In this document: piece by piece, positions 11,137 through 64,000 of the stretch
Numbering within the stretch: position 1 is the first letter of the stretch
How the letters are laid out: each line of letters begins with the position of its first letter
DNA from: Saccostrea cucullata
Taxonomy: Eukaryota
Direction of reading: 5' to 3'
DNA: 64,000 bases
Assembly (NCBI RefSeq): GCF_032062105.1
Contig: NW_026937591.1
Location: 1-64,000, forward strand
Made by a program: the position numbers and the translations under genes
Notes under the pieces: generated by a model
What the model was told of the DNA's origin: nothing
What the model saw: only the letters and a program-made list of their open reading frames with translations
The model's database searches: none

Positions 11137-11691
11137 TTAGAAGTTATTAGTAGAAAAGTTTTCAAAACGTAGCATATAGATTCTTAAAATCATGATAAAT
11201 ACAAACAAAACAAGATAAATACCCCAAAAAAATCGATCAAAGAAATAAGAAATTGAATCTGTATGTCCACCATTAACGACAGATTCCGTGGCTTTTCTAT
11301 CACACACAATACCAACGGGAAGTTCCTTTACAACTGGTCGTAGATCATACCTACCACCACATTTTGGTACCAACTGCATAACATTGTATCGTTTCTTTTC
11401 TTGCCTACATTCGCTATCTTTCTTCAATTCACATTCTGTCCTATTGAGGTTCTGTGCTTTATATATTACTCTTGGTATCCAGTTCTCGTCAACATCCGGT
11501 ATCCATACCCAAGCACAGGGACCACTTCCGGTTTTAGTGGGACATCTGTTGGCTTCAGCGATCATTTTTGAAATTCTTTCAAGAGATGACAAGGAAAACG
11601 TTATGCTTGGAGATTGCTGACCAGATACTTGTTGAATGGGATGATGAATCAATCCAGAAAGGAAGACAAAAATAATTGCTGATGTGATAAC
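11137..11691 (-). CDS. Interleukin-17-like cystine-knot protein, copy 1 (main coding exon; start exon unresolved), with C-terminal hydrophobic tail
   Basis: Acceptor TTTTTTCAG then signal-peptide-like VITSAIIFVFLSG. IL-17-like pattern PCAW..D.DENWIPRVI.KA...C...C..V.QL...C...Y......LPVG.VC. Confidence 0.72.
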   Translation of the reverse strand, partial: VITSAIIFVFLSGLIHHPIQQVSGQQSPSITFSLSSLERISKMIAEANRCPTKTGSGPCAWVWIPDVDENWIPRVIYKAQNLNRTECELKKDSECRQEKKRYNVMQLVPKCGGRYDLRPVVKELPVGIVCDRKATESVVNGGHTDSISYFFDRFFWGIYLVLFVFIMILRIYMLRFENFSTNNF

Positions 11692-11921
11692 CTGAAAAAA
11701 GGATATATATATATATATTTTTTTAATGGAATGTAATGATTCATTTATACTTCTGTTTGATAAATGCCTCTGTGAATATCCACATATCTTAATTATATTA
11801 ATCAGTTTGATTTATTATTGATCTGTTATACTAATACTTAATTTAACCGATAAACATAACAGGATTGGACTGCCTTCATAAGTCCTCTTAAAAATACTTT
11901 TAAAAAATTACAAATACTTAC

Positions 11922-12100
11922 CGAATTATGGGTTTAATTTAGCATATGAACACTCATTTAACAACTAAATTTTGCATGCACCACAGTGTATTTCGGAAAA
12001 ATATTTTGCAATTAAAGCAGCTGTATTTTAAGATATTATTTTCGTATTTCAATTACCAGTATTATTTTCAGAAAACACATTTCGTTGCTTAAAATATATA
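11922..12100 (-). promoter_or_regulatory. Putative TATA box and upstream exon of IL-17-like copy 1
   Basis: TATATATT at 12100-12093 on the - strand. Donor CG|GTAAGT at 11922/11921 is conserved in all three copies. Confidence 0.45.
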
Positions 12101-13994
12101 AGGACGTAAAACGTTGGGAATTTAAACGTAAGTATACATTGCTTGGACGATGAAACAGGGCTTAGTTTAAACAGCTATGTTTGTTGAATTTTTTTTCTGG
12201 TAGAGAATTCAAATAGTTCATTTTTGATACTGCTATTGAAAGAAACTTTGATTATTATGTACAATTAATGAATTCTGTGGTTTTCAGAAGTCTATTGCTC
12301 ATATGCTAGTGAAAAAAAAATTTTAAAAAAGTTTTGAATTGTCATAAACTGACCTGGAGATTTTCAAGTAATTGTAGTCCTCCGTATTCCAGAATTTTTT
12401 CCCCTTTCAGTTTCTTTAATGATTCAGTGTGTGATTAGATGAAACAGAGTTTTCTTCTTCATCAAACCATCGTCAATCTCAAAAAAAAGTTTTCATCAAG
12501 ACATCTAGGTCTTTGTATCGAAATTTAAACCAAAGAAAAATTGAATGACCTTGAGATTTTCAATTAAGTTTAGTCCTCCACACGTCAGATGTACTTTTTC
12601 TCCTCTCAAGAATATCTTTGCCATGCACGGGTAGATGCTATTTTCAAGTGTTCTTTGAAAATAACCTTTGATCCGCGTATCACTCATTATTTTTTTTTAA
12701 AAAACAAATTAACCTCTTGCTTCATTATAAATTTAAATGTGTCTATTGAAACACCTAATTTTTTCATCAACATCAAAAGTACAAATTTTATTACAAATGA
12801 TGTGACTTTTCTCTTATTTCTACGAAGTACCTTGTTATTATCTGCAAAATCAATTTTAATTCAAGAAAAATAGATGTACCGGTTTTCTTTTCAAAACAGA
12901 AGTTTTCATTCACTTTGTAACTTCCTAGAGTCCTATTTTTTATCAAAATAAACAGATTCATTCTATGAAGAAATCCTGATGAAACAACTTCTAATACATG
13001 TAATTGAGTTTTCGGATTTTTTTAAAGATTTTTTTTTAAATAATGGTATCTCAGAAGAAACTAAATTAAATGTTTTACTTAATTATAGTGGGTGAGGAAG
13101 ATTAAACATATCTTTTTTTTAAATAATATTTTCACATTTAAGGATTAATTTTAAATGACTGCTATATGTATTTTAAGCAGTATATTTTTCTTCTCAAAAT
13201 AGCTTCATTGTAGGTAATTTACATATTCTTAAAAAAACGAAAAAAGAATCCCTCTATTCAAATTTAGTTCAAATATCCTGAAATATATGTGAGAAGTAGT
13301 ACATTAAATTAAGAATGAAGAAAGAAAACATTATTCATGAAGTTTAACATCAAACACGGACATCTAGAACATTCAGAGACGGGTTAGATGACATTAATAA
13401 GTAGACCTTCCCGCTTAAAAGTTGACACAGGCCATTTGCCCTTAACATGATTTTGCAAACGAGAAAGACTTTAGAAAATTCGGTTTCGCACTGAAGGCAT
13501 TATTTTTTTTTATCAAAACGTGAGTCAGATTTCGACTCAGTGATAGATTTCTTGTAACGATAGTAGAAATTGCAAAATATTTACGTTTACATATAACTTC
13601 TTTGGTCATTTTATTGATTCATCATTTTATTTGTCAAAAGATTGTCTCATTTTTTCTTTTGAAAATATTGCATTAAATTTTAAAAAATGTAAAAAGATTG
13701 CTGAAAATAAGTTGCAAACTTCTCTTTTTTTTCCCCCATATTATCCAGGGGCGGGATTCATAAAACTTTTTGGTTTATTCTTAAGTTTAAATAAACCACT
13801 TAAACTATGTTTATTTACTTAATTTCCTTAAGTTTTACTTAAATGTGGTAGAAATATACTTTAGTGTAATTCATAAACATACTTACTGCTTAAGTACTGA
13901 TTTAAAGTTAAGTGTCCTTAGGAGGTGTCTTAAGTAGGTAAGTATTTCTTAAGCAAATAAGTATTTTTTAAGTTTTCTCTTATATCTAAACAAA

Positions 13995-38420: not shown

Positions 38421-38879
38421 TTAATCAAAGAAATCAGAAATTGAATCTGCATGTCCACCATTAACGACAGATTCTGTTAACTCTCTTTCGCAAACAAAAC
38501 CAACAGGAAGTTCCTTGACATCTTGTCGAAGATCATAACTTCCATCACATTTTGGTACTAACTGCATAACATTGAATCGTTTCTTTTCCTGCCTACATTC
38601 GCTGTGTTCGTTCAATTCACATTCTGTTCTGTTGAGTTTCTGTGCTTTATGGATAACCCTCGGTATCCAGTTCTCGTCAACATCCGGTATCCATACCCAA
38701 GCACAGGGACAACTTCCGGTTTTATTGGGACATCTATTGGCTTCAGTGATCATTTTTGAAATTCTTTCCAGAGATGACATGGGAAATGTTATTCTTTGAG
38801 ATTGCTGACCAGAGACTGGGTGAATCGGATGATGAGTCAATCCGGATAGGAGGAGAAAAAGAATTGCTGATGTGATAAG
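38421..38879 (-). CDS. Interleukin-17-like protein, copy 2 (main coding exon)
   Basis: Open frame from the acceptor, LITSAILFLLLSG signal-like segment, same IL-17-like motif set; stop after ISDFFD. Confidence 0.72.
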   Translation of the reverse strand, partial: LITSAILFLLLSGLTHHPIHPVSGQQSQRITFPMSSLERISKMITEANRCPNKTGSCPCAWVWIPDVDENWIPRVIHKAQKLNRTECELNEHSECRQEKKRFNVMQLVPKCDGSYDLRQDVKELPVGFVCERELTESVVNGGHADSISDFFD

Positions 38880-38923
38880 CTGAAAAAAGGATATATATTT
38901 TTAATGGAATGTTATGATTCTTT

Positions 38924-39380
38924 TATTATACTTCTGTTAAAATGTTTCCTATATAAAGTTCAGAAGGTAAAACAGCTATCTTTTATAGTTCACGCATAGA
39001 AAAGCTATACCCCGGGGTATAGGTTTTGCTATCCATCCTCGGAAAATTTTCATGCAATTTTTGCCTCCAATTTTGATTTCCAGCGATAAATGTATTGACT
39101 ATTGATGTCATAATGACTTCAGTAGCATTGTGACGTCATCAGGATTTCAGATTATTCTTGCAGTATCTTACTAAAAAAATTCAGACCTCAGAAATTATAC
39201 TATACATCAGTATAATAAAACGCTTATCCACTGTTAGTGAGTGGGATAGCTCTTTTATCAGACCCTTGACAGGGACTATTCCCCTCGGGCAAGCCCTCGG
39301 GGAATAGTTCCCTGTCGCAGGTTTGATAAAAGAACTATCCCACTCACAACCAGTGGATAAGTGTATATTATACATCTGTT
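38924..39380. mobile_element. 442-bp insertion with long terminal hairpin (Crypton-like non-autonomous) in the IL-17-like copy 2 intron
   Basis: Absent from copy 1. Bounded by the direct repeat TATTATAC(T/A)TCTGTT. Hairpin 39210-39373 centred on CCTCGGGCAAGCCCTCGGG. Confidence 0.75.
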
Positions 39381-41973
39381 TGATAAATGCCTCAGTGAAT
39401 ATCCAGGCATATCTTAATTATATTTTTCAGTTTGATCTGTTATACTAATACTTAATTTAACGGATAAACATAACAGGACTGGACAGCCTTCATAAGTCCT
39501 CTCAAAAATACTTTTAAAAAATTACAAATACTTACCGAATTATGGGTTTAATTTTGCATATGAACATTCATTTAACAACTAAATTTTGCATGCACCACAG
39601 TGTATTTTGGGAAAATATTTTGCAATTAAAGCAGCTGTATTTTAAGATATTATTTTCGTATTTCAATTACCAGTATTATTTTCAGAAAACAGATTTCGTT
39701 GCTTGAAAGATATAAGGACGTAAAACGTTGGTAATTTAAACGTAAGTATACATTGCTTGGACAATAAAACAGGGCTTAATTTAAACAGCTATGTTTGTTG
39801 AATTTTTTTTTCTGGTAGAGAATTCAAATACTTCATTTTTGATACTGCTATTGAAAGAAACTTTGATTATTATGTACAATTAATGAATTCTGTGGTTTTC
39901 TGAAGTCTATTGCTTATATGCTAGTGAAAAAAAAATTTAAAAAGTTTTAAATTGTCATAAACTGACCTGGAGATTTTCAAGTAATTGTAGTCCTCCGTAT
40001 TCCAGAATTTTTTTTCCCTTTCAGTTTCTTTAATGATTCAGTGTGTGATTAGATGAAACAGAGTTTTCTTCTTCATCAAACCATCGTCAATCTCAAAAAA
40101 AAAGTTTTCATCAAGACAGCTAGGTCTTTGTATCAAACCAAAGAAAAATGAAATTTTCATTGAATGACCTTGAGATTTTCAATTAAGTTTAGTCCTCCAC
40201 ACGTCAGATGTACTTTTTCTCCTCTCAAGAATATCTTTGCCATGCACGGGTAGATGCTATTTTCAAGTGTTCTTTGAAAATAATCTTTGATCCGCGTATC
40301 ACTCATTATTTTTAAAAAAACAAATTAACCTCTTGCTTCATTATAAATTTAAATGTGTCTATTGAAACACCTAGTTTTTTCATCAACATCAAAAGTACAA
40401 ATTTTATTACAAATGATGTGACTTTTCTCTTATTTCTACGAAGTACCTTGTTATTATCTGCAAAATCAATTTTAATGCAAGAAAAATAGATGTACCGGTT
40501 TTCTTTTCAAAACAGAAGTTTTCATTCACTTTGTAACTTCCTAGAGTCCTATTTTTTATCAAAATAAACAGATTCATTCTATGAAGAAATCCTGATGAAA
40601 CAACTTCTAATACATGTAATTGAGTTTTCGGATTTTTTAAAGATTTTTTTTTAAATAATGGTATCTCAGAAGAAACTAAATTAAATGTTTTACCTAATTA
40701 TAGTGGGCGAGGAAGATTAAACATATCTTTTTTTTTGAATAATATTTTCACATTTAAGGATTAATTTTAAATGATTGCTACATGTATTTTAAGCAGTATA
40801 TTTTTCTTCTCAAAATAGCTTCATTGTAGGTAATTTACATATTCTTAAAAAAACGAAAAAAGAATCCCTCTATTCAAAATTAGTTCAAATATCCTGAAAT
40901 ATATGTGAGAAGTAATACATTACATTAAGAATGAAGAAAGAAAACATTATTCATGAAGTTAAACATCAAACACGGACATCTAGAACATTCAGAGACGGGT
41001 TAGATGACATTAATAAGTAGACCTTCCCGCTTAAAGGTTGACACAGGCCATTTGCCCTTAACATGATTTTGCAAACGAGAAAGACTTTAGAAAATTAGGT
41101 TTCGTACTGAAGGCATTATTTTTTTTTTTTTATCAAAACGTGAGTCAGATTTCGACTCAGTGATAGATTTCTTGTAACGATAGTAGAAATTGCAAAATAT
41201 TGACGTTTACATATAACTTCTTTGGTCATTTTATTGATTCATCATTTTATTTGTCAAAAGATTGTCTCATTTTTTGTTTTGAAAACATTGAATTAAATTT
41301 TTAAAAAATGTAAAAAGATTGCTGAAAATAAGTTGCAAACTTCTCTTTTTTACCCCATATTATCCAGATCTTTTAAAAAAAAATATCGTAAAAAAATATA
41401 ATTTCCTAAACATATCTGCAATTTTTTGCAGAAATGTGCATTTCAAAATGGCCATATTAACCATTACATGTTGGCAAGTTAAATCATCAGTTGATGATCT
41501 GCTAAAAATCTTTTTTTTTTCCTAAAATTGGGATTTTACCATTTATTTTATTAATATTTATTTGTCCTTATTTGGAATTATTTTAGCTATTCATCAATCC
41601 TTGTATTCATTTAAATATTTAAACTTGCATCAATTAATTGACCAAGGTATTCATTTCTGTGCAACTGAAATGTTAATAATTTATGTTCAGTAAGTGTTAT
41701 GTTTATTGATATTTCTTGCAACGATGCGTCAACTATTTATTATACTAAGTAATTATTTTGCCTGTTTGCCGGTCATAAAAGTAGACGAAGGCTTCGAAAG
41801 AAAAATAATCATCTTACCTCCAAACTCGAAAATCCTATTTTATATGTGTTGGGGGATGGGATTTTTAAAATTATCTTATAGTAAAAAGTTCTGTTTGAAA
41901 CAAAATTAAGATCAACATCCCCCTCCACTTTATGATTGTTCCGTGTAAATGCAAACGTATTGTATATAAATAA

Positions 41974-43811
41974 GGGGGCCGACTGGGGTTTTCATTGCGC
42001 AATTTTTCGCACATCATAGTAAAATGGAAGCGTTTTTACTGTTTTACATTGTAAAGCAACTTTTTTCACTTAATTAATAACATTAAACAAAATTAAGAAA
42101 TTACAGTTTTAAAAATGTAATTACAATGTTATATAACTGATTTTTTAAACCTACTGCGCAGCTGATAGGTAGGTTGACGTCGATATAGTGTGCTTTTGAC
42201 GTTATGATAAACTGAAGCTCTTAAGGGAAGGGGTAATCAAGATGTTATTAAAGAAAAAAGTAATAACATACGCTCATGAAATTTAAAACATAGACATCTG
42301 AGAATTTCTCCATTATTTTTAGTATAGGCCTAATTTCATTTAAATTTTGTGACTGTCATATTTTGTACATGTAGTACTCTATAGAAAAAAGGAGAATTCG
42401 TTAATGTTTGGCCTTTTGAGATGCTCCCTCTGGTAACAAGAGTGTAGAATTTTGTGTGTCTTACATATAATGCACAATATAGTATTACTTATCATATATT
42501 ATAGTTTGAACAAAAAGTCTATCGTAGTATTTGTATAATTTTCTTTTAAGTGCTAGAATTGGAAATTTTCTAAATACATTCTATAGTAAATGTACCTGTA
42601 TTTTGAGACGGTCCCTTAAAAATACCTGGAAGGTAGATTTCTCTTAAACTCGGCGTGTACACTATAGTTAATGTAAATTATACGAGGGCTGTTCGGAAAT
42701 TATTGAGACATTGTGAATATTTTGCTTTCTAATGAACGTCTTTCGGTGAAAATTTGCATATACGTTTGACATACACTAAAAATTAATATAAGCAAGAAAT
42801 ATTTTACAAACATTAAATATTTTCTCTACAATGGTATATAAATGTGTCTATAGTAGGGGTACCCGGAGCAGTCGCGGAATCGGATATTGAAAATATGTAA
42901 CACCAAAATTCTAACTCTTCGTGGATCCATAATGAGAGTGAAAATAATTCAGTTTAAGTGTATAATTTTTCAGCTTTGTTTCAAATTCGTGTTGTGCAAC
43001 TTTGATAGAATTTTGATCAGAAATACGGAGATCATAAAAAAAATTAAGCGCGGTAGAGAAATCTGCTAACAAGGACAAAATGGATTTTGACGTCAAGGGC
43101 GGAGCAGCCAGCATACCTAAAATTTTGTGTAGCGCAATGTAGAACTCTTTTCAAGACTGAACGACCTGCTAAAACAATAACAACGAGAAAAAATAATGTG
43201 TTAGGGTTTGTTTTTTCATTGGCATACATTTTTTTTACAATTAATTTAACCAGAGTAAAATTAAAAGATCTGGACGACCATGAGTTATTACGTACATTAT
43301 TGATATCGTTACGGTATTAAACCCGCGTTGCATAAATCGGCACTGCATGATTCTAAGTCATCCTTTCCCACAAATGAACATTTTTCACTGGGGTAGCAAC
43401 AGCATACATTTTTAAAGAATAGTTTAAGAATAGAGACTATTTGATTTTTGTAATGTTATATGTAATAACAAAGAAGGAAGAGTATTAAACGCTTCCCGAT
43501 CGTTTCACATGCGAAACCATCTGCGGCTAACGTAACGTTAATTGACGTAACGATGCTGCTCCGGGACGATAGACATATGCATATTTATTACTTCACCGAA
43601 ACTTACCTCATTATCATAGGAATAAGAAATTTTGCATAAGTGTTTTAGTCGTTCTTTATAAGATGTTGATGAATTTTCATGAAATTATCTCCGTCCTTTG
43701 TGGAGTAAATGTAATTGTCTCAATAATTTCCGAACAGCCCTCGTACATGATATAAAAATGAAGAGTTTTTGCTATTGTAGTTTTCACACAATAAGACCCA
43801 AGTCGGCCACC
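41974..43811. mobile_element. PIF/Tourist-like MITE with TAA TSD, containing a mariner MITE
   Basis: TAA|GGGGGCCGACTGGGG ... CCCAAGTCGGCCACC|TAA; an older paralog near 3475-3492 lacks it. Confidence 0.75.
42683..43743. mobile_element. Tc1/mariner-type MITE, 1061 bp
   Basis: Perfect 28-bp TIR CGAGGGCTGTTCGGAAATTATTGAGACA with TA TSD. Confidence 0.92.
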
Positions 43812-43820
43812 TAAGTTCAA

Positions 43821-47122: not shown

Positions 47123-47386
47123 AAACTAGATATAAGGTCATGTCAATAACTAATTCAGATTTCACTCGCATAATAATTATCGTAAATTTAATTGATAGTC
47201 TACTTTCATTATCGGTTAACAGCCTCGAAATAGCACAAAAGAGAGTACGGTGGTGGTTTCTGTTAGCAGCCATGCTATAAGCCTGTATATTTAACTGTCA
47301 GTAGAAAATTACAGATACTTTTTGGAATAGTATTTATACTAGTTAAAAAATTATTCTTCCGCGCTTGCGCGAGATTTCATCTAGTA
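47123..47386 (+). mobile_element. Short Helitron/HINE-like insertion
   Basis: AACTAGAT start and GC hairpin CCGCGCTTGCGCG just before the CATCTAGT end. Confidence 0.4.
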
Positions 47387-47544
47387 CATGTATGTACATG
47401 TATATATTTAGATTAGATCTTGACAAATTAAATTTTATGAATTAAATCGTTTAATTTTTAAAGCGAAATGTCCAACTTATTTAGTTGAAAGCCCATAAAC
47501 ATGATATAAACAATTTTTTTTAATTAAAATTTAATTATTTTTAG

Positions 47545-49682
47545 ATGAATGAAGTCAAGACTTCGAAGAACTGGCGTTCTGGCCTCAGTGTTGCTGAATG
47601 TAACAGATATATGCTGAAGAACGAGATTCATTGTGATGTCTCATTTAGAGTGGGGAAAGAAGAAAAGCTTGTTCGCGCTCATAAGTATGTTCTAGCGAGC
47701 AGAAGTCCCGTGTTTGACGCCATGTTGTATGGTGACCTGGCGGAAGCTAAGGAAATTAAAATTCCTGATATTGAGCCAGCTGTATTTCATGTTCTTTTAA
47801 GGTAGAATTTTCATTTTATTATTCCTTGCCTTATTTTTTAGCTCTTTGAAAATCAAATCCATAAATCTGTTGTTTTTTTCCTTTTCCTTGCGTTTTACGA
47901 ATCATTTCTACAATCAGTAATATCTACAGAGTAAATCAAAGTATTAAAACAAAAGCATTAAATTTTACATCAGGTATTCTTTATATGTATAGATTTGCAT
48001 TCAACGTAATGCCTGCATTGTGTGAATGTGCTTAAAAAAATCATGTTCAAAATATAAACGCCATATTTTCATTTTTTAAAAAAATATGATGAAGTCTTCC
48101 AGTAGTCATATGCACAGTTTCCGGTTTTGCTGAAGTATTTCCTCTGTCAGCTTACGTTCATGATATACTTATACCATCGTGTATCTTTACTTCAAATACC
48201 TATATTCATTTTTTTACGAAAATCTAATCTGTTTTTTTATTTTTTATTTTTTATTTATTTTTTTTTTTTTTTTTTGCCAAAATTTGATTTCAACAAATAT
48301 TTGAATTGAAAAGAGAGAGCATTAATTACAAATGCCAATGAAATATACAGCAGTATTGTTTTATATAAAATATATGTTACATCTGTCACAAGACAAAATT
48401 AAAAACAGCCCAGAAGGTACATACAATAAAAGAAATGAAATGCATATCTTAAATTTGCCCTAATTAATGTAGAACAATCGTGCATACAGAACTCTATAAG
48501 TGTACAAAAAAAAAACATGACTAAAAATGGCAAAAAAGAATGGACTTGATTAAAAAACATACCACAAACTTGTCGAAAACAAGCAGGTCAGATTTTATAC
48601 TTATAATTTAATATGTTTTTTATATAGATTTCTGTATTGCGGTGATGTTGATGTTACCAAGGATACAGTCATTGGGGCATTGTACGCTGCTGATAAATAT
48701 GATGCTGATGAATTGAAAAAAGAAATGCAATCATATTTAGATCAAAATATTACAACGGAAACTGTCTGTACAATCCTTGAACCTGCAAAGTTATTCAACT
48801 TTGAAAATCTGAAAGAAAAATGTATGGATTTCATTGAACAAAACTGTGAGTCCGTATTTCAGTCGCCGTCTGCTTTAGGACTAATGAAAGAAACCCTCAG
48901 CGAGATAGTCTCATCCGATAACTTAAATATAGAGGAACTGGAAATTTATCAATTTCTTATAAAATGGGGCTGAAAACCAATGCGAAAGAAAACGTAAAGA
49001 AAAGTCTGATGGCAATATCAAAAAAGAGATAGGAGATATCATCTATCACGTTCGTTTTCAGTCCTTGACTTTAGAAACATTTGCAAAAGATGTTTGCAAA
49101 CGTCAAATACTTACTCCTGAAGAGATGATAATTTTGCAGCAAATTATTGTTGGTAATCTGCCCAAAGGAAACACAAAATTCAATCAAGAAGAGCGCGGAT
49201 ATACATGTAAAACATTTACGGTTTTTCGTGGCAGTGGACCGACAGAAAGTTGGAGTTATGGGGGTACCGAGGACAGTTTAGAATTTACAGTGAACAGAAA
49301 AGTTAAACTTCATGGTTTTATGATGTGGGGAGGAATGTCGGTTCCATATAGGTACACGGTTGAGGGAAAATTGATTGAAAACTATAACGAAATGGCCGAT
49401 ATACCTTCTCAGGTAATAGAAAAAACTGTTTCTTCGGATTATCAGTTTGTTGTTGAATTCAGGAAACCAGCGATCTTATATCCTTATAAACGATATAGAA
49501 TTTGGGTTAAATTACAAGGTCCTGACAGCTGGACGGGTCAAACTTACAAACAATCCGTCAATGAACAGGGTGTTCAGATAGACTTTTATAAGCATGATGG
49601 GAATAATAACGGGACTTCGGAAACTAATGGACAGTTTCCGGGATTAATCTTGTCATTGCAATCCCGTAGCTTTAATATCTAA
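47545..49682 (+). CDS. BTB-BACK-PHR protein (BTBD3/BTBD6-like), copy B; join(47545..47801,48628..49682) with one +1 frameshift at G4 48966-48969 (436 aa if corrected)
   Basis: Canonical splice sites. Removing one G gives KWAENQC..VRF continuous with a full PHR domain (W.Y.G..D.L.F.V, NNGTS...GQFP). Confidence 0.8.
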
Positions 49683-50023
49683 TTTATAATTTCTGTCATT
49701 TATGTCATATAAATTGTTTATTTTATAAAGAAAAATCAACACCGACTTGTATTTCACTAACTATTGTTTTACTATTTTTGCTGTTAATGTAATCACTTTT
49801 ATAACAATAAACTCAGTAAACATTTCTTGTTATTTCAGTTTTATTAATTAACCAAAAATACATAATGCGCTTAATCGAAACTTAAATTAACAAACAATTT
49901 TGCCCCGTTTTAAAATCGCCCGATCAAAGTTTTGTTTTAGAAATTATACTGCATTCTTTGAATTCGCCTCGTTTTATATTCGCCAAAATGAGGGTGGGGC
50001 GAAAATTTCCCTGTATACAGTAA

Positions 50024-51076: not shown

Positions 51077-54000
51077 CAACCGAGCGAATAATTTTAGCAA
51101 TTAAGACGAATTGGTCCGTAGGTGAAACAGGGAATGTTTTGATGTATTTTTACGATCAATGCCGTCAATATTTCTTCCTTTAGTATGCGAACAAAACAAG
51201 GGGATTGTATAGCGACTGCTATGTGGATTTACTAAACCGTATGGAGATAACGAACGGGTTTGGTATATGGTTCTTACTTTTTCACAAGACAATTTGATCC
51301 ATAGATATGATGGGTTTTGATACTAAATTACAATAAAACATGCCAAAAGCGCTGGTATCGCCTGTTTTAGTTTTTATAACTCCAAAGGAATTTTGGGTTA
51401 AGAAAGGTAAGTGCGGTTTTAGGCTAATCATAGTATTCAAAACCTACTTCACAACGAAAGAAGATTTATTGTACATCTCGTGATTGAAAAATATCCTTAT
51501 TATTTATCATTTTATCTTTTTCATTGTATTAATTTAGAAATATTCCAAAACAAGTTGCACCGTGACAGAAATATGAAGACAAAAAATCACCTGGCATTGT
51601 TATTCGGTCGCGCTATGACCTCTGACCCCCAAATGAAATTCACACAGAATTGAACATATTTTCAATAGGTTCATCTAAGAAAGATATCTGCATTGGAATG
51701 TTGAATCTGATCACGTGCTAAATATTTTTTTTCACCATAGTTAATCATGAATAATATTTCAAATGATAAAATTACTGAATTTTAAATTTAATATAAAAAC
51801 TTATTTTTTATCTTAAATAATTACAAGAATGCAAATGTATTGTATTTAATAAATTTCAGATTTGATCAGTGCAATGTATTACATAAAGCAATTCAAATCT
51901 AAAATTAATTGAAAAAAAACTCTATTACGTTTTTTTCTTTTATTTGCTGATACATGTTATACAGTTTTTTTTCTCATTTTATTTTATTTATTTATTTATT
52001 TTATTTTTATTTCTTATTATTTTTTTATTTTTATTTATTTATTTATATATTCATCTTTGTTGTTGTTTGAAAATCCCAGTAACCGCCGTAAATATGAAAT
52101 CTGTCGAATGATTTCGAAGTGTTTGAGAATACTAGACGTAAATGAAACTTGGACAGAAGACAAATACAAAGCTTAACAATTGCTATCTTCCGCGGGATAC
52201 TTGCTTTTTTGAAAATATATCTTACAAATACCGAAAAAAGACGTGACCTACATCGCTTCTGACTCCGAAGCGGTGAAAAGCTACTACCCCATACGTTGAA
52301 AACGACTCCCCCATACTTTTTAGCGACTCCCCCGCGTTACCCCTTGTATACGGTGAATTTCCATGTTGTATTAGTAATGAAGTTTGGGCGGGACATTCAT
52401 TTTTTTTCACCAGGCACATAATGACCAAAACTCTTCCTTATCCTAATTTTAAAAAAATAGCAAGAATATACATGAAACAAAACAAAACCATGTAAATATA
52501 TTAAAGCAATTTGTGGAAGGGGTTACTCCATGTAGTTAGAAACCTTGTGTAAAATTTTATTATAGTATGGGGTAATTTTTTATTAGAGAAATTAATTGCA
52601 TGTGTCTATATAATATGATATACTGTCAAAATTGATGCAAAACATATTTTAAAATCAATTTCAAAGTCCGGTGGAAAGTAAATTTGATTTCGGAATATTC
52701 AACATGTCCAATAAACTTTTTTTTAATTAGACTTAAAAACATTATACGAAGAAGTATGTCAGTTTGGGACATTAATATATATTACTTTTCCATAATCATA
52801 TTAATGTGTTTTATATCCAAAACAGTACTCCATACAATGTGCGGACCTTATACCCGACAGTATGTAGCAAACAATCTCAATTTCTGTGGGGCGCCTGAAA
52901 GAAATCCTAAAACCATGAAAACTGATTACTTTTTCTATCTAACTCCTGAACAATATTGACATGTCGTGTACAAACTTTCCGAATGTAATACATGTAATTA
53001 CAATGTATTATCGAATGCAACGCATCTTGCGTAACTTTTTCAACTTAAAAAAAGAAAATCATCATCCTTGCAGAGTCCCAAATACATGTAGTCTCTTTAC
53101 AAACACAACTTAAAGGAGAGGCAATTCGGAACGTGAAGGTTTACAGCAATATGAGTTGCATGTTTGACATCGGAAAAGAAATATTTCAAATTTGTTATTA
53201 ACTATTTTAATGACAGGAAAATAGAACGTTTATAAACCTCTGTTGATCATATTTGGTATGGAAGAACTTTTTATAAGCTTTGATTGAAGCAAAATTGAAT
53301 TATTGTCAACCTGTACAAAAATAATTTCTTATATAACACTATATTTTCTCGTGCAAAATATTTCCGCTGAAACATTTTAAAACTTTATTTTGGTCTTTTT
53401 GATCATAAGGGCTTAGATTATTTACAAATTAATCATAATAACACATTTTACCAGCAAAATAGCATTCTCAAAAATGCAGCTCATATTGCTTTAAGTAACG
53501 GATATCTGATAACTGAACTGAAATCACATAGATTTATGGCGTTTGTAGAAAACCTGCTAAGTTGCAGAAAATATTTACATGTTCATTACAAGGATTCAAA
53601 CAAAGATTCACGTTTTTTACATACCAGAAATATGTCTTATCTTCTGTCAGTTCTTTTTACTGTAAATAATGGACATTCATTCTTCTATCGCCACAGAAAA
53701 GAGATCAATTGTAAACACATATGTTTAGGACTTTTTAATCATTTTTCATATTAAGTTTTAAAGGAGACAACAAACTATGAAGACTTGTTCAATTTGAAAT
53801 TCAACTGTTATAAATGTTGTTAAATATAAAAAAAAAATTCGTAGTTAAAATAAAAAGAGGCTGATCTGAGAAAATCACAGACCTTGGAAACACAGAGGGG
53901 TGATCAGGTTGCTTGGTGAGGTTATTTTCCCTGTGGAAGGGAAAAACAGCCGTGAGTCCTTTGTATTGAACATGTCGTTAAAATTAACACGAAAACAATT

Positions 54001-54506
54001 CATGCAATGAATTTGTATGAAACATGTCAGTCAAATCATGAACAAACCTTTAGCATTTACAAACATGGTCATTATAACGAAAATGAATTAGCAGAAAATA
54101 CTGACAATGAAGAATATTACTGAAAGCCCAGTAACATATTCTTATTTGAAAGTGATATGACTGAGTTATTAGAATTCAATCTCTTAGAACGAATATTTTC
54201 GAAACAAATGAGTTTGGAGAAATTTAAGTGTAACTATATATAATACAACCTTAATCTTCTGGAAAGCGAGATTTTTTTTTAGAATAAAAACAATTTTATA
54301 TATAAAGAACAATAACAAACCTAAAAATTGAACATAAATATACATATTTACAAATTTGATCAAATGTAAGGACTCATTTGTGAATTCATATTTTAGATTT
54401 GTTTTAGGAGAATTATATTTCATGAAACAAATTGGTAAATTTTTAAAGCCAAGAATACGAATAAGTTATTTAAAAGCCCTTAAAGACGATATATAAAAAA
54501 TGTTAT

Positions 54507-54811
54507 CATGTGCAGATCTACGGGGGGGGGGGGTCCGAACCCCCATTAGATTGCTTTTTTAAATAATTAATATAAGTGACCCTGGACCCCCCTTCCCAAT
54601 TAGAAAATGCTAATTCCTGAAAAGTTTTAGGTTTCTAGGTTTGAAGCATTAAAATTCAATACCCCCCCCCCCCCGAAAATAGGTTTTTCAAGTTTGGAAA
54701 AGAAGGTTACGGGTTTTTTTTTTTTTGGTTTGTCAGAAAATTTCTGGGTTGTATTGCTTTTGGACTGGGGTGGACCCAACCCCCCTGGAAAAAATCCTTT
54801 ATCCGTGCTTG
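54507..54811. mobile_element. Degenerate poly-G/poly-C short MITE immediately upstream of the BTB copy C coding exon
   Basis: CATGTGCAGATCTA-G run ... C run-TTTATCCGTGCTTG imperfect inverted ends; absent upstream of copy A. Confidence 0.45.
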
Positions 54812-55983
54812 GTTATAATTTTATGTTTTATTTACAGATGACAGAAGTCAAGACTTCGAAAAACTGGCGTTCCGGCCTCAGTCTTCCTGAATGTAACAGA
54901 TATATGCCTAAAAACGAGATCCATTGTGATGTCTCATTCAAGGTTGGAAAAGAAGAGAAGCTTGTTCGCGCTCGTAAATACGTTCTAGCAAGCAGAAGTC
55001 CCGTGTTTGACGCCATGTTGTATGGTGACCTGGCGGAAGCTAACGAAATTAAAATTCCTGAAATTGAACTACCTTCATTTGATGTTCTTCTCAGGTAGAA
55101 AAAGTTTTTTTTGTCCTTTTTTTATGCTCCTTCTGATTAATCCTGATGATATTATAATTTTTCCCATTTTCTTTCAGGTCATTCTTAAGCAGACATCGAG
55201 CTACGTAAACGCATTAATATTGTCACAATGAATTTTGAATGACAGATTACTTAATTGTATGAGAAACGAGACGTGTTTAGCTTTTTATCGTCAACTGTTT
55301 TCTTTTTAAGTAATATCCCGCTATCATCTGTATATGGTGTTAACTTCTTATATGGTGTTAGCTTGTCAGCTTATTCGACATTCAAATGCATGCTTCCAAT
55401 GCGATCAGTTTCTTTATTGTCATTGGTTACTGTCAGATAAGTTTATGTTACAGGAATTTAAATATCATTTAACTTTCGAAATTCTATGGGTATAGTGACC
55501 TTGTAAGCAATTTGAACTTGTCAGTGGGTCTTATTTGTCTGACTTGTTTCATAACAATTGTTTGCTCTTTGATTTATACTGGATATAAACAGAATGTTCC
55601 CTTTACCGTTATCTATACAAAGTAATAAGGGCGGATGCAGAATGCTTATTTTTATTTTGCACGACATCCTACCACGTGGATATACAGGGTCCGTGCTTGA
55701 TATCTTATTTACGGATTGATATTGTTTTTATTTTTTCTTGATCTTTCATTGTTCGTTCTTTATGCGTTTTACATGATTTAACCTGAATGGACCTATTGAA
55801 ATTGTTTTAGTACATAATTGAAACGAAAAACCCTTTCTACTTGAAAGGGCCTTTTGTTTCAATTATTTTTTATCTATTTTTAGTTGCCTCTAAGTAAAGT
55901 ATCACTATATTACAAAAAAAAAAACGATAATGCATGAAAGAAATTCAAAAAAAAAAAATAGAGCTTTGTGTTGTTTTGTTTAA

Positions 55984-56907
55984 GGTAGGATTCTTCTCAT
56001 ATTTCTAATATTTAAAAATTAATGAAATTTTCACAGAATCAAGAAGACAATAGCAGTAAGTGATAGTATCAGTAAAATTAAATTTGACTGCTTTATATTA
56101 GAGGCAAGGTCAGGTCAAGGTCATTATCTTTTTCCTTGACATTAAGAATAAAATATAACTGTTGCCAATCATGTGATACCTACTTCTAATTCAAAATATT
56201 AATAATTGTTCTTTTTGCATAAAAACATATTACTATATCGGGTCTATAGCATGATATTACAAAATTTACATAAATAATTTAACTTAACTGGATATTGGCT
56301 AATCCGAATTTTCTCTGTTTTTCTTAATTTTTTTAGGATATATTAGTTATTTGCAAATGCTTCCTATATTTAACTTTTTCTTATTTTCACATATAATAAA
56401 CAGATAAAGTAGTCTTATAAATGTACAAAATGATACAAAAACAAAAAGTTTTGATCGTTTACTAGGAGAGAAAAAATACTTTTTATGGATTTTTGGCTCA
56501 AATCTGCACTTTGACAGGAAGCGTTTAAAAGTTAATAAAGTTCTAGTTTGTTTGAAAAATCATATTTATTTGATATATTTTGAAAGTTTAGTCCCTCATT
56601 ATTAATCTAACTTACATTTGAAAATTTCTCCAAGTCTTCGATTGTGTAAAAATTATAACTAAATTCATGGTTCTATTATAATTTTGAGAGGCAGAAAAGA
56701 AGATATTTTCATACGCCACCAATCCGCCAAAAATATAGTCCCTGCTAGTTTTCAAACGCAGTTTACCATTTCTATTTAAAGTTGTACAATTGTGATGAGG
56801 AAAGAAAAATATGGTCTTTTAAATTCCTTACACCTCAATATATAAGACATATAAGCAAATATACTTTGAATGTTTCATCTAGTCAGAAACCAGAGAAGAA
56901 TCCTACC
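55984..56907. mobile_element. Kolobok-like MITE, 924 bp
   Basis: TTAA|GGTAGGATTCTTCTC ... GAGAAGAATCCTACC|TTAA, perfect 15-bp TIR. Confidence 0.88.
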
Positions 56908-57269
56908 TTAAATCTGGAATGTAATCGTTTTCCCATTAAATTGCATATTTTTGTATTGTGGAGATGCTGAAGTCAATAAGGATACTGTAATCAGAGCCTT
57001 GTACGCTGCTGAAAAATACGATGTTCAGGCGTTAAAAGAAGCGACGGAATCATACGTAGACAAGAACATTACAAATCAAACTGTTTTGAAATTCTCAGTT
57101 TTTGAAAATGCAAAGTTATTTGGCTTAGAAGCTTTGTCTAAAAAATGCATAGAATTTATTGATGGGAAAGGCGCATCCATGTTTCAATCACCATTTGCCT
57201 TAGAGATAAGTAAGGACACCTTAAAGGAAATTTTATCCTCAGACAACCTAGATATTGAGGAGTTGAATG

Positions 57270-58300
57270 CGCAGCACAGTTAAGGTTGCAAATGGAAATA
57301 TCGGCGATTTTTTAAGATGAAAAATACATACTTTATTAGGATGGGCGATTCCTTTTAGGAATTCACTGATATAAAAAAAATGTTATGTGGTTTAAATCTA
57401 CATGTTGGGGACATCTAGATTTTTCATTTAGACTTGTCATGTGATGTCGACGACACATGACTTTGGCAATTATACTTGCAGTTTAGAGGTCATCTATAAA
57501 TTTCAATATTGCAAGGGCATAACCAAGTTAAAAATCTTAGTCTATTTTATAATCCTTTTCAACACTATATGTAGTTTGTGAAAAGTGCTGCGAACCTATA
57601 TAGATTCCCTTTTTTAATTGGTAAAATTTAATTTGTTGGACGGCAGGTTGAATATTTTGCTGGTCAACTACATTAAATATAGCTATAATTAATTTATTTG
57701 CAAGATTCCAAGAGGTTCGCAGCACTTTTCAAATATCTTAATGCTTCTTGAGTTTATGTGTACAATTTTGACAAGATACATTGAGGGTATGCCCTTGCAA
57801 TAAATCAATTTATTAGGGCCCTTCCATTACTTTTTCAACGAATCTGCATAAAAACACACGAAAGTATCGCTTGTCTGGAGAATGCACGTACATTTTATAA
57901 ATAAAATTCTAAAATGGACATCGCATCCAAGTTAACGGCTTCTTATTTTACTGCAAATAGTATTTCATTTGAGAACAAAAGACATTTTTCATTGTACAAA
58001 ATGAGACTTGATCAGCCTCTCAATGTGTACAAACTGCGTCATTTTTGCGAGATGACGTCACATTGACAAGTGCATTGCGATCGATACATCGTTTATATAC
58101 TGTTTTGTGGGATTTATCAAACGACAAAACTGCATGTAATAGTAAGCTTGTATGTAGTATACAGCTATCCAGCTGTTTGAAATAGCAAATAATTTCATTT
58201 TGTGGTATTTTGAAGACCTTATATTATGTGTGACGTCATAGTAAACATTTCCCGTACAAATTACGCCCCGCCTCCTTACTGTAACCTTAACTGTGCTGCG
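57270..58300. mobile_element. MITE with CGCA terminus and 2-bp TSD (TG), disrupting BTB copy C
   Basis: TIR CGCAGCACAGTTAAGGTTGCA / TGTAACCTTAACTGTGCTGCG; removal restores GAG TTG AAT GTT TAT CAT. Confidence 0.9.
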
Positions 58301-58631
58301 TGTTTATCATTTTCTGAAGGTCAGTGTGAGGTCAAAGGTTTGAGGAAGTCGGATGAAAATATAAGAAATCAGATAGGAGACGCAGTGTATCGAGTCCGTT
58401 TTCAGTTCATGGATCTAGATATGTTTGTTAAAAACGTTTGCAGACGCAACATACTTACTTCGGAAGACAAATTAATTTTGCAGCAAGTGATTGTTGGTAA
58501 CCTGGAGAAAGAAAGCACAAATTTTAGTTTTGGAAAGCGGAAACCTGCATTGAAGACTTGTAATGTTTTACGTAGTAGTAGTCCTTATGAAAGTTGGAGG
58601 TTTTCCGATCATAAAAAACGTAGACAGGATC

Positions 58632-58737
58632 GTCGCACAGTCCCTTATTGGGTGCAGCATTAAGGTCGCACGGTCCCTTATTGGATGCTGCATTGAGGAC
58701 GAGCTGTCCCTTATTGGATGCAGCATTAAGGACGCAT
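58632..58737 (+). repeat. 33-bp minisatellite, ~3 units
   Basis: TCCCTTATTGG(A/G)TGC(A/T)GCATT(A/G)AGG at 58641, 58674 and 58707. Confidence 0.85.
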
Positions 58738-59156
58738 TTCTGTTCCTGATACGTATAAGATTTGGCATAACATGCTTGCAAACTCGATTAAAATAGTAAA
58801 TATACCTTCACAGAATGTAACTCGAGGAAATACGTCCGATATCCAGTTCAATATTGTGTTACAGAAAAACTATACTTTTAACTCCCAACAACGTATTTAA
58901 ACTATGCGTGAAGCTTCAGGGGCCATCAAGCTGGACAGGAACTCTCTTTAAACAATCTGTTTAGGTGTTCAATTTGATTTTTTTCGACATGATGAAAAAA
59001 ATAATGGAACTTCAGATTCCGGTGGACAATTTCCTTGCTTTACCTGTTCATTGCAAAAATAAAAATACCGGATGAAAAAATAAATTTACTGGGGTTTTTT
59101 TTTTTCAAGAAAAAAACTGAATAATTATATTGTTATATATTTTGTAAAAATATGAA

Positions 59157-59607
59157 GGTCTTTCCACCTGCTTATGATGTCATAGGTTTTAGCAAAAACA
59201 TCTATTAATTTAAGTTCATACCAAATAAAACAATATTTTTGAAGAATGCTTATCAAAAGCTAGGTGAAATGATAAATATTGTTAAATAAAAGAATCTTAA
59301 AAATTCATATTTTTCTTAATTTGTTTCCCTGATATTCAAAGTATCTAATACGTAGAAAGTATTTTGGAACTTTCAGCATCAGAGTTATGCATTTGAACCA
59401 GTTTTTACATATTTATTATAGCACAGCTTACAGTAAATGTAAGTTTTTTTAACGTTGAAATGTACTTCTGTTTATTCATGTCTCCAATCTGAGATGATAT
59501 GGCGACCTATAAATGTTTGCAATAATTGGTAAATTTAAAGTATATTAAATGAAAATAATTGTAGTTTTTGTAATTTGATCCATTAAAACTGTAAGGGTAG
59601 AAAAACC
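59157..59607. mobile_element. Kolobok-like MITE (degenerate)
   Basis: TGAA|GGTCTTTCCACC ... GGTAGAAAAACC|TTAA; absent from the paralog near 9165. Confidence 0.6.
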
Positions 59608-59698
59608 TTAAAACATCTCAATTTTCATAATTTTCTCCAAATATATTATGACCTGTAAAGTTTCATTACCAATTTTTATAACAAAACATAAACCACCT

Positions 59699-60200
59699 CA
59701 TCGTCGGAAACCCACGGGTGATCTCGTCTTTACTTATCACCAGTGGGCAAACTGCTGAAATATCGCTGTAAAATATGCTAATTTGTTGTTTTTAGTCAAC
59801 CAATCAGAAAGTTGGAACTCTTCAATTTTGAAAAATACGTTTATTACTTTGCTATTTATGGTAAATAATTTGACCCTCTTGAAAACAATGAAAATCATTT
59901 CGTACAGGTCACTGATATTAATATCCGTCAGATATTATGAAGGAGTACCTCTTTCTAACTGCAAAATGCACCGGTGAGTGGTTTTATCGGCTGTGTTAAC
60001 TACGGAATGAGTTTCTCATGTTTTTGGCAATGCCGAACATGCATACGTAACGTGAACTGTGATTCGTTGTTTCGCATCGCGACTCTGTGATGTGGCCAAT
60101 CAAATGACCCATGCATATTTAATTACATACGACGATTTTTCGGCGAGTTTGCCCATGGGTGATAAGTAAAGACAAGATCACCCGTGGGTTTCCGACGATG
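59699..60200. mobile_element. MITE with 9-bp TSD (MULE-like), 502 bp
   Basis: ~43-bp TIR CATCGTCGGAAACCCACGGGTGATCT.., TSD AAACCACCT, empty site near 9248-9256. Confidence 0.9.
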
Positions 60201-60324
60201 AAACCACCTCAAACATAAAGTTGATTACGGCTACTGTAAATAGACAGAAAATATTCAGGCAAGGATATTGTCAATGAGATTTTAAAACTGAAATATGTTT
60301 CGTAGGTTACATGTTGGTATTTTT

Positions 60325-60690
60325 TAATAATTTTATTTTGGTTGTAACGCTGTATTTGATTGGATGAAAAATTTACTTTATATCATATAAAATAGGTTGC
60401 CTACGTCACAATGAATTTCGTCAAAAACGTATCAATCTGCCAAACGTTACATTCAAATTTTGAACAAATTGAAGTCATTTTGTTAGAACAATCATCTTTT
60501 TTTTCCTACATCAAATGAATGAAAATTAAATTATAAGCAATGAATTTAATAGCTACCCATTTTATACGGTATAAACTGGGTTTGAACAGTTTATGCTTTT
60601 TTATAAACCGCTTCGCGGTTTATAAAGCGTAAACTGTTCCAACCCAGTTTATACCGCATAAAAAGGGTAGCTATTAAATTCATTCCTAAA
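60325..60690. mobile_element. Hairpin-ended (Crypton-like) non-autonomous insertion; boundaries approximate
   Basis: Hairpin 60539-60684 centred on CCGCTTCGCGG; absent from the paralog near 9355-9380. Confidence 0.7.
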
Positions 60691-61103
60691 ATAAAAAAGT
60701 TCAATTCTAGAAAAATGTGACGAAAAAAACAATTCTTGTATTAAATTTGGTGAAAAATTACGTAAAATAGTCAATCATATTTTTTCTAATTTTCAGTTAT
60801 GCAGTAATGTAAATCTCTAAAATCATTCCAAACATAAAAACATTGTTGAGTTTTAATCTCCGAGTTTTGATAACTAAAGGCTGCACATGAGATTTTTTGG
60901 AGAAAGAAAGGCAATTAAATTTGGTGAAAGAAATCATTTTTTTAAAAATCATGAATGAATTATCCATTAAGCAATGGTCCTGATAGTAAATTTGACGATA
61001 CATTTAGATCAGGTGAAAATTCCATCCCCCTTGATCTAAGTACACTGTACATAAACGTGTGCGCTACAAAATACACGCTATGTGTACTAATAGTACTAAC
61101 ATA

Positions 61104-61220
61104 TATTCTGTTCTGTTGAGTCTCTGTGCTTTATATATACCAAGTGGTATCTATCCTGTTTTCATCATCACAAGGTATTCATATGCAAGGACAGGAACAA
61201 CTTGTTCTGTTGAGTTTCTG
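61104..61220 (-). pseudogene. Degenerate IL-17-like exon fragment
   Basis: ATTCTGTTCTGTTGAGT.TCTGTGCTTTAT...GGTAT.CATA..CAAG.ACAGG.ACAACTT matches 38621-38716. Confidence 0.65.
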
Positions 61221-62989
61221 CTCTTGAATGACATGTCCTTTATAACTCGAAATAAAAGAATCAAACTTATCTTTCTTTTTTTTTAATTTCTATACGAAAC
61301 AAAAAATGTCAAAGTGCCAAAAGCACGCATCGATCAACGTAAACTTCGGGAATGACACAAAAGCCTTATTCAGCAACAGACTCGTCCGACAGTCCATATT
61401 GAAAAACTTTATACAAATATTATGGTAAAAGTTTTCTTCGTAATCACATGCACATTTTAAACGAAGGAAATTTTATCAATGACCAATATTCCTTTTCTTT
61501 CCTACATTGATGATATACCGGTATTTCTTTGCACTCGAAATAAAACACCCAATCTTTTCCGTCTAATTTATTTCTCTTATCTAATTTATTTAAAAATGAT
61601 ATTTATCAACTTAAACATGTACCATCAACTAATACACGAGAGTCTCAATTTAATTATAGATATCAAGAAAGAGAATTTAACCTAATTGACGATAATGGAC
61701 AATTATTATGATGACATTTTCTCCTTAATATCTGCTTTACTTCATTGCCTCAAGAAATGCCTCATGTACCTCATTTCAATTTGTTTCCCAAACGTGTATC
61801 CCTTATAGTATAATAATATAATTATTAAGTACAAGGTTTGAATTCAAAATTTAAATTCACTGGATGTATAAACCTGTAAAAAAAGACGTTTTTCATTACA
61901 TTCCAATCAATTTAAATCGACGATTGCACTTGTTTACTTCAATATATTTATCACTCATCCATCAATATTGAAGTTTCTTTCAATGTTTTAAAGAAAAGGT
62001 TGTGCATGCAAACATATATCTATGGAAGATGGAAGAAAAGTGTTTCACATTGTAAAAAATAAATTTTATTTTCATTTTTGTTCATTTTTAATGCCTAAAT
62101 TGCCCCCCCCCTTTCGCAAAAGCGATGAAACGTTTAATATCATTTGTCTGTCCGTCCGTCAGTCTGCCTGTCGGTCTGTCTGTCACAAAACTCTAACCTT
62201 GATAAGGGTGTACATATGTAACACAATATGCCATAAATAATGGCATCCCATCCATTTAGACACCGAGCTCAAGATCAAAAGTCCATAAAACAATGCAAAA
62301 AAGGAGCAGAACAAACACAGACTTCCAAAACATCAGAAGATTGGATGCAGTGAAGGAGTGAGCATTTGATTATTCAATGTCAATGTTTGTTTATTTGATT
62401 CACATTAAATTTCATTAAATTTTATTTATTCTTCACTTGGTAAATACATAATACAACAATTATCATAAGAATGTATCGAATCATTATGATATTTACCTAG
62501 TTATATTTGCACAGCATATAACATTATTACGAAAATTTTATGTTATTATAATTGAAACGAATATTATTTGCTTTCAAAAAAATTTCAAATTAAACAATGA
62601 TCAAAATAGATATGAAATAGTTGAAGAAACAAAATCTGACATATTTTTAAATAAAATCCACAACAAATTCAAAAGAAATATTCTTAATTTATACATCATA
62701 GCACAAAACAAAGAGAATTAGTATATTTATGTATATTTGGTGTCATATTTTTTATGATAGCATCGTGTTTAATGTATGAATATTAATTAATCATAAATGC
62801 AATGTATTACGTAAGCTATTGGGCAATCTACGAATATTCCTTTTATTATTTTTTGTAGCATTGGATAACTTTTGAAAATGATTTTTTTATTTCGTCTGTT
62901 AGGATTATTAGAAGTAAAATTTTAAAAACGTAGCATATTGATTTTTAAAATCAGGATAAACGCAAATAATCAAAATAAATTTTAAAAAA

Positions 62990-63451
62990 TTAATCAAAGA
63001 ATTCAGAAATTGAATCTGCATGTCCACCATTAACGACAGATTCTGTTAACTTTCTATCGCAAACAAAACCAACAGGAAGTTCCTTGACATCTTGTCGAAG
63101 ATCATAACTGCCATCACATTTTGGTACTAACTGCATAACATTGAATCGTTTCTTTTCCTGCCTACATTCGTTGTGTACGTTCGATTCACATTCCGTACTG
63201 TTGAGTTTCTGTGCTTTATAGATAACCATTGGTATTCTGTTTTCATCAACATCCGGTATCCATACCCATGAACAGGGACCACTTCCGGTTTGAGTGGGAC
63301 ACCTGTTGGCTTCAGCAACCATCTTTGAAATTCTTTCAAGAGACGACAATGGAAAGGTTATTCTTTGAGATTCTTGACCAGAAACTTGTTGAATGGAATG
63401 ACGTGTCACTCCTCCGGCAAGGAAGACAAATAGAATTGCAGATGTGATAAT
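62990..63451 (-). CDS. Interleukin-17-like protein, copy 3 (main coding exon)
   Basis: Open frame from the acceptor, IITSAILFVFLAG signal-like segment, PCSW..DVDENRIP (closest to the canonical DxNRIP) and LPVGFVC. Confidence 0.72.
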   Translation of the reverse strand: MITSAILFVFLAGGVTRHSIQQVSGQESQRITFPLSSLERISKMVAEANRCPTQTGSGPCSWVWIPDVDENRIPMVIYKAQKLNSTECESNVHNECRQEKKRFNVMQLVPKCDGSYDLRQDVKELPVGFVCDRKLTESVVNGGHADSISEFFD

Positions 63452-63746
63452 CTGAAAAAAGGATATTTATGTTTAATGGAATGTTATGAGTTTGTTTGAT
63501 AAATGCCTCTGTGAATATCCACGCATATCTTAATTATATTAATCAGTTTGATCTCTTATACTAATACTTAATTTAATCGATAAACATAACAGGATTGGAC
63601 TGCCTTCATAAGTCCTCTCAAAAATACTTTAAGAAATAACAAAATACTTACCGAAGTATGGGTTTAATTTTGGACATGAACATTCATTTAAGAATTAAAT
63701 TTTGTTTGCACCACAGTGTATTTTGGGGGAAATATTTTGCAATTAA

Positions 63747-63961: not shown

Positions 63962-64000
63962 TTAAAGCAGCTGTATTTTAAGATATTTTTTTCGTATTTC

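Follow-up and report, generated by a model that had tools for sequence, protein, structure and literature searches.

Three interleukin-17-like exons lacking knot cysteines 2 and 5 at a locus of Saccostrea cucullata

Three minus-strand exons and their predicted fold

The stretch of DNA analysed here, hereafter the window, comprises positions 1 to 64,000 of contig NW_026937591.1 of Saccostrea cucullata, and contains three related minus-strand exons that resemble interleukin-17 (IL-17) genes. An earlier note, based on the letters of the window, had described three copies with IL-17 hallmark motifs within 11137..63451, and all were located, with their motifs as given there:

11137..11691 (read from 11691 to 11137), minus strand: IL-17 copy c1, main coding exon, 184 codons, from six-frame translation
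38421..38879 (read from 38879 to 38421), minus strand: IL-17 copy c2, main coding exon, 152 codons, from six-frame translation
62990..63451 (read from 63451 to 62990), minus strand: IL-17 copy c3, main coding exon, 153 codons, the copy chosen for folding

An identical acceptor, TCCTTTTTTCAG, precedes each exon, and the three copies are pairwise 79-82% identical in protein and 85-89% in DNA. All contain the motifs C[AS]W and DEN[WR]IP, the latter with W in c1 and c2 and R in c3. The A-x-C site reads AQNL in c1 and AQKL in c2 and c3, and the VG-C-x-C site reads VGIVC in c1 and VGFVC in c2 and c3, so the changes to KAQ[N/K]L and VG[I/F]VC noticed earlier are present in every copy. Six cysteines are common to the three copies (RCP, CxW, TEC, ECR, PKC and VCD/E), and c2 has a seventh, two residues ahead of knot cysteine 1 in the six-cysteine numbering used throughout (Cys1 to Cys6). 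An N-glycosylation sequon (NRT, NRT and NST in c1, c2 and c3, at 11445, 38633 and 63202, minus strand) lies two residues past the lost Cys2 site and is not conserved in oyster relatives.

For all three copies the best Pfam family was IL17 (PF06083), with E-values of 0.0043 (c1), 0.0027 (c2) and 0.00027 (c3), at scores of 17.9, 18.5 and 21.7 bits, respectively, which are all under the gathering cut-off of 24 bits. A single-sequence phmmer search against the PDB gave no IL-17 match and just three chance CD79B rows, hence a profile search was needed. With a family profile, 14 of 14 matches among PDB sequences were IL-17s, at weak E-values of 0.19-1.6, and the alignment to IL-17F and IL-17A was collinear, with fitting motif order and spacing and only Cys2 and Cys5 replaced. 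The AlphaFold2 model of mature c3, based on an alignment of 16 rows, consisted of one helix and four strands, with a predicted local distance difference test score of 76 and a predicted template modelling score of 0.60. All 35 among the Foldseek matches listed for this model were IL-17A, IL-17F, IL-25 or their complexes (best E-value 6.3e-4), and an exhaustive VIA-align search of 48,161 chains placed IL-17A (Z 7.5) and IL-25 (Z 6.4) on top, followed by other cystine knots (Noggin, Z 6.2; NGF, Z 5.1) and PTTH (Z 4.8). For an Ostrea edulis relative, introduced below, the top matches in a structure atlas were IL17 clusters at 0.94, with a template modelling (TM) score of 0.55 to IL-17N. Together, these results indicate that c1, c2 and c3 encode IL-17-fold proteins, with a cystine knot of two beta-hairpins that is nearest to IL-17 structures, as the earlier note had expected.

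In the profile alignment, the first Cys of the family falls on the Ser of S-P-W in IL-17F and IL-17A, the Lys or Asn on the Cys of Q-A-Q-C, the next Cys on the L-G-C Cys, and a hydrophobic residue on the first Cys of V-G-C-T-C, while the E-C-R Cys lies within about one residue of the N-S-V-P Ser. Cys2 and Cys5 are thus gone and Cys1, 3, 4 and 6 present in all three copies, which bears out the proposal that a matched pair, equal to one whole disulfide, has been lost. PMC11087794 (PNAS 2024) describes several structural types of IL-17: T1A with all three bonds, T1B that lost 2/5, T1C that lost 3/6, T2 that lost 1/4 (chordates), and T3 as a further type. The window copies lack the six knot cysteines of T1A, and differ from T2, which has Ser at Cys1 and Cys4 and keeps 2/5 and 3/6; judged by sequence, they match the T1B definition exactly. 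The core disulfides would be Cys1-Cys4 and Cys3-Cys6, a pairing deduced from the alignment and PMC11087794, according to which the two remaining bonds in T1B and T1C link all four strands. Because the 1/4 pair is kept, there would still be two core disulfides, the same number as in human IL-17A and IL-17F. The earlier note had used the four-cysteine vertebrate numbering and overlooked this invertebrate 1/4 pair, which is absent in vertebrates.

Conservation in oyster relatives and purifying selection

Database searches yielded 11 relatives of the same clade and one remote IL-17 (P0008). The near-full-length clade relatives are 40-52% identical to the window copies, and include the 'uncharacterized' proteins A0A8W8P0T5 of Magallana gigas and LOC125660838 of Ostrea edulis. 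A two-domain canonical IL-17 (P0009) was excluded from both the cysteine count and the tree, and a 62-amino-acid fragment (P0016) from the tree; three giant proteins (P0005-P0007, 3 of 8 matches in one search), in which 32-34 residues matched, look unrelated and were dropped. Two relatives attain the Pfam IL17 cut-off (P0002 with 24.0 bits and P0010 with 25.5), whereas eight other clade members score 13.3-21.7 bits and the fragment has no match.

Cys2 is absent from all 11 relatives that cover the site and Cys5 from all 12, those of M. gigas and O. edulis included, and Cys1, 3, 4 and 6 were found in every one of the 12 aligned relatives that covers them. The loss is therefore conserved in oyster relatives and not a matter of random decay, in agreement with the earlier note. 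Its count of six other shared cysteines holds for c1, c2 and c3, but not beyond: the N-terminal RCP Cys is present in 9 of the 9 clade relatives covering the site and the hairpin PKC Cys in 0 of 12, so that only five of the six are conserved outside this genome. A Cys two residues ahead of Cys1 occurs in c2 and in two of nine relatives. In IL-17F, the N-terminal Cys pairs between chains with the hairpin Cys. By analogy, the invariant R-C-P Cys probably makes a chain-linking bond, perhaps with the hairpin-tip Cys (P-K-C) in this genome, and its partner likely differs by lineage.

In a 14-row tree, c1, c2 and c3 group in a branch of their own (support 93/84), with its placement relative to a Magallana branch and an Ostrea-containing branch not settled. 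Pairwise Nei-Gojobori dN/dS over 152 codons was 0.27-0.42 depending on kappa, with Fisher p-values of 1e-6 to 3e-3 and bootstrap intervals at kappa 2 within 0.19-0.71. Maximum-likelihood codon models gave an omega of 0.29 (MGK) and 0.24 (GY), and compared to omega = 1 twice the log-likelihood difference was 29.0 (MGK, 1 degree of freedom) and 37.4 (GY). The three copies are under purifying selection, with omega significantly below 1, and the claim that they are selected therefore stands. We did not find the clade in print in the open-access literature, where a full-text search for the names A0A8W8P0T5 and LOC125660838 gave no papers.

Gene ends, neighbouring genes and mobile elements

Directly 3' of the acceptor, all three copies encode a hydrophobic segment that aligns with the N-termini of the relatives, whose annotated starts sit just ahead of the equivalent segment; the oyster ones begin with MN and MQ. 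Secretion by means of a signal peptide would fit this arrangement. Upstream of the exons lies a conserved 5' region:

11874..11940, minus strand: conserved 5' region of c1, with equivalents near 39488-39560 (c2) and 63604-63670 (c3)

It contains a strong donor (G|GTAAGT) and no in-frame ATG, together with two candidates for a two-codon first exon, MK with a GC donor and MN/MS with a weak GT donor. The upstream region of c3 ends at the window edge. In a sea urchin IL-17 gene, the first exon is described as Met plus one residue (PMC5457136). At the other end, c1 continues for another 32 residues (11140-11235, minus strand), including a hydrophobic 19-mer with a Kyte-Doolittle mean of 2.24. The sequence of this tail is compatible with a tethered IL-17, or it may be an accident of AT-rich untranslated sequence. 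The 3' regions have 5-6 ATTTA motifs per 700 nucleotides, with a window mean of 3.2.

Neighbouring genes, one IL-17 remnant and matching upstream blocks were located as follows:

7136..9060, plus strand: BTB-BACK-PHR copy, tail to tail with c1, PHR disrupted by frameshifts and stop codons, within the duplicated unit
54814..59056, plus strand: BTB-BACK-PHR copy, tail to tail with c3, exon interrupted and PHR broken, part of the duplicated unit
47536-49679, plus strand: third BTB-BACK-PHR copy, PHR domain intact (Pfam E-value 8e-23)
about 61097-61267, minus strand: remnant of a fourth, decayed IL-17 copy, with indels and stops, at 74-77% DNA identity across 61105-61203
11745-13748 versus 39368-41367, 21027-22976 versus 41370-43312, and 26069-26368 versus 43312-43613: matching blocks upstream of c1 and c2

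In the third BTB copy the frame changes once, in a short run of G near 48970, and this change is either real or a sequencing error. A candidate fifth IL-17 copy near 52.5 kb, suggested by weak tblastn rows, was dismissed once the DNA was read. Copy c2 has a mosaic make-up: the 1.5 kb upstream of it shares 97% identity with the corresponding stretch of c1, whereas its exon and downstream DNA are nearer to c3 (89% and 89%) than to c1 (88% and 84%). Upstream of the two exons, c1 and c2 match at 94-98% identity over about 4.2 kb, far above the exon identity, and the c1 side of this match holds two later insertions. The mosaic would fit unequal crossing-over or conversion in a tandem array, and the upstream identity reflects either mosaic paralogues or recent conversion.

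Further features of the window, most of them mobile or repetitive elements, are:

13748-21013: PIF/Harbinger-like element with 37-nucleotide terminal inverted repeats
14059-15342, plus strand: DDE_Tnp_4 transposase inside this element
20442-20789, minus strand: Myb/SANT open reading frame inside this element
18286-19924: tyrosine-recombinase/DUF3504 (Crypton-like) gene nested in this element
32361-35375, minus strand: fragmented Gypsy-like long terminal repeat retrotransposon (gag-like, aspartyl protease and reverse transcriptase pieces), downstream of c2
63743-63965: miniature inverted-repeat transposable element of about 220 bp with 18-nucleotide inverted ends that begin with TTAA (piggyBac-like), an insertion upstream of c3
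38944-39368: insertion of about 430 bp in the c2 intron, with a long internal hairpin (56-nucleotide arms), absent from c1 and c3
4605-5391: tandem array of a 146-bp unit, 5.4 copies
23002-26054: 3-kb insertion rich in TTCATGAA palindromic repeats
28831-30052, minus strand: fragments with a KCTD-type BTB_2 domain and C2H2-like zinc fingers

NF-kB consensus sites matched twice in the window (1.6 expected), both times inside a transposon, and none lies near the IL-17 genes.

Function, alternatives and comparison with known IL-17s

The reading we favour, and consider likely, is that the bivalve, probably oyster-related, IL-17 genes of the window form a tandem array, are of structural type T1B and encode secreted, dimeric, agonist cytokines with a two-bond core. 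Each product would be a short secreted protein with a signal peptide, one N-terminal helix, four beta-strands held by Cys1-Cys4 and Cys3-Cys6, and an acidic tail, the Cys2-Cys5 bond having presumably been lost in an ancestor shared with oysters. The homodimer would bind a double-FN3/SEFIR IL-17 receptor, as other IL-17s do, and the signal would pass through CIKS and TRAF6 to NF-kB, with a role as a barrier or haemocyte cytokine. We found one mollusc IL-17 with the T1B pattern and functional data, Mytilus coruscus McIL-17-3. It has two predicted bonds, C97/C134 and C125/C169, and a Thr in place of the second Cys. Haemocytes and gill express it, Vibrio increases its expression 3-4-fold, and in HEK293 cells it increased the activity of an NF-kB reporter 2.07- and 11.07-fold (PMC10055819).

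Several observations weigh against this reading. There is no convincing first coding exon, as the only strong conserved donor comes without an in-frame ATG and the donors of the two-codon candidates are weak, and c1 does not have the stop that c2 and c3 use after F-F-D. In c1 and c2 a Trp occupies the position of the motif Arg, which is kept in c3 and in 11 of the 11 relatives covering it. Omega is high in the signal segment (0.52-0.87), which spans only 14 codons. Given the lost stop of c1 and the broken BTB neighbours of c1 and c3, some IL-17 copies may be decaying. The structural scores are moderate, with Z below 8 and TM of 0.38-0.48 by query length. Finally, McIL-17-3 appears to belong to a different clade, and because its reporter result was obtained in a heterologous system, human HEK293 cells, it amounts to moderate evidence.

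Among the alternatives, an IL-17-fold ligand redeployed for a non-immune, neuroendocrine or developmental task, possibly with a Torso-like FN3 receptor kinase, as for CFSH, PTTH and nematode IL-17, seems unlikely to us. Such roles are described for IL-17-family ligands in ecdysozoans (PMC11087794), the window clade is long-branched and by eye unlike the seven C. gigas IL-17s, and the genes have no NF-kB consensus site nearby. Conversely, the predicted c3 fold is nearer to IL-17A and IL-25 than to PTTH in the Z scores given above, and tandem multi-copy turnover is described as typical of immune IL-17s in molluscs (PMC8353272). A composite of several features is improbable in our view: an overlooked oyster-lineage subfamily with a minimal two-bond core, whose invariant N-terminal Cys has a rewired partner (the hairpin-tip Cys here, a neighbouring Cys in Magallana, and none in Ostrea, giving a symmetric inter-chain bond), which acts as a decoy or on a different receptor, and of which c1 is membrane-tethered by stop-codon read-through.

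The earlier note had also suggested altered receptor use or antagonism, neither of which is supported, given the activity of McIL-17-3. We give little credence to a decoy that would occupy an IL-17 receptor, or pair with canonical IL-17s as a heterodimer, and transmit no signal. The low identity to human IL-17s (about 14-21% in the Foldseek matches), the loss of additional cysteines, the Arg-to-Trp change in the N-R-x-P motif of c1 and c2, and the non-signalling receptor complexes described in the human system (PMC9477748) would suit a decoy. However, loss of one bond is common and compatible with activity, as in vertebrate IL-17s without 1/4 and T1C proteins without 3/6 (PMC11087794), the T1B-pattern McIL-17-3 is a pro-inflammatory activator of NF-kB (PMC10055819), and the cysteine pattern holds nothing that predicts antagonism. 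It is also quite unlikely that the clade functions in oysters and the window copies are recently dead or leaderless, as the start exon problem, the lost c1 stop, the decayed fourth fragment, the broken BTB neighbours and the many transposon insertions adjoining the IL-17 genes might suggest, since three intact frames of 152-153 codons differ by one in-frame codon indel despite a dS of 0.21-0.40, with identical acceptors and omega significantly below 1, even if that selection could predate the recent death of any one copy.

The compensated loss of the 2/5 cysteines is already known and named T1B (PMC11087794). The cysteine loss described in the earlier note stands, and an unrecognised non-canonical class is not supported. 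The novelty that remains is small: the oyster-related T1B clade itself, which has no name and scores mostly under the Pfam cut-off, with an invariant N-terminal Cys whose likely partner varies by lineage. The clade can be added to bivalve IL-17 inventories. Because the majority of its members stay under the cut-off, and the two with database names are filed as 'uncharacterized', the number of IL-17s counted in oysters may be too low. The clade also illustrates cleanly, in a natural case, what has been published on the IL-17 knot, namely that any one of the three disulfides can be dispensed with. An antagonist clade, another receptor or a membrane-bound read-through copy would, if true, matter more.

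Like the T1B invertebrate IL-17s of PMC11087794, the window copies lost 2/5 and keep 1/4 and 3/6. According to that source, T1B and T1C are common in invertebrates, with three T1B genes in amphioxus, and by eye the clade is unlike any of the seven C. gigas IL-17s in its mollusc set. Other mollusc T1B proteins retain an additional Cys, as part of a C-x-x-C ahead of Cys3, which is missing from this clade. McIL-17-3 shares the two predicted core bonds and the replaced second Cys site (PMC10055819); its other replaced site, the 'sixth' of that paper, would by residue spacing be Cys5 in the PNAS numbering. McIL-17-3 and M. galloprovincialis IL17-3, -16 and -17 differ in their length of 190-194 amino acids, a longer N-terminal region and extra Cys, and appear to belong to another clade. 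Read by eye, the mussel DNA encodes C-P-W followed by A-S/A-T-K-C-T-K-C, and IL17-3, -16 and -17 are without Cys2, in sequences that end before Cys5. According to PMC8353272, mussel IL17-18 and IL17-21 could form only the two bonds typical of chordates; in our reading by eye, 1/4 and 2/5 are retained and 3/6 is missing, which is the T1C and not the chordate pattern. Three IL-17s of Pinctada fucata and three of Capitella teleta in Huang 2015 (PMC4517768) also lack Cys2 and Cys5 by eye and have 1, 3, 4 and 6; the available text of that paper lists them as ordinary IL-17s, without remark on the 2/5 pair, and their sequences are remote from the window clade.

Human IL-17A, IL-17F and IL-25 (type T2), the best structural matches to c3, likewise have two core disulfides, but show the reciprocal loss at 13-22% identity: 2/5 and 3/6 are retained, and Ser-Ser stands in place of the 1/4 pair, in line with PMC11087794, which describes all vertebrate IL-17s as lacking the 1/4 bond. 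A close likeness is seen to M. gigas A0A8W8P0T5 and O. edulis LOC125660838, with 49-52% identity, the same cysteine core and the shared motifs R-C-P, K-A-x-K, E-C-R and N-G/acidic tail. The hairpin Cys is missing from both; in its stead the M. gigas protein carries a Cys two residues ahead of Cys1, and that of O. edulis has only five Cys. By sequence, these two proteins and the window copies likely form an orthologous clade.

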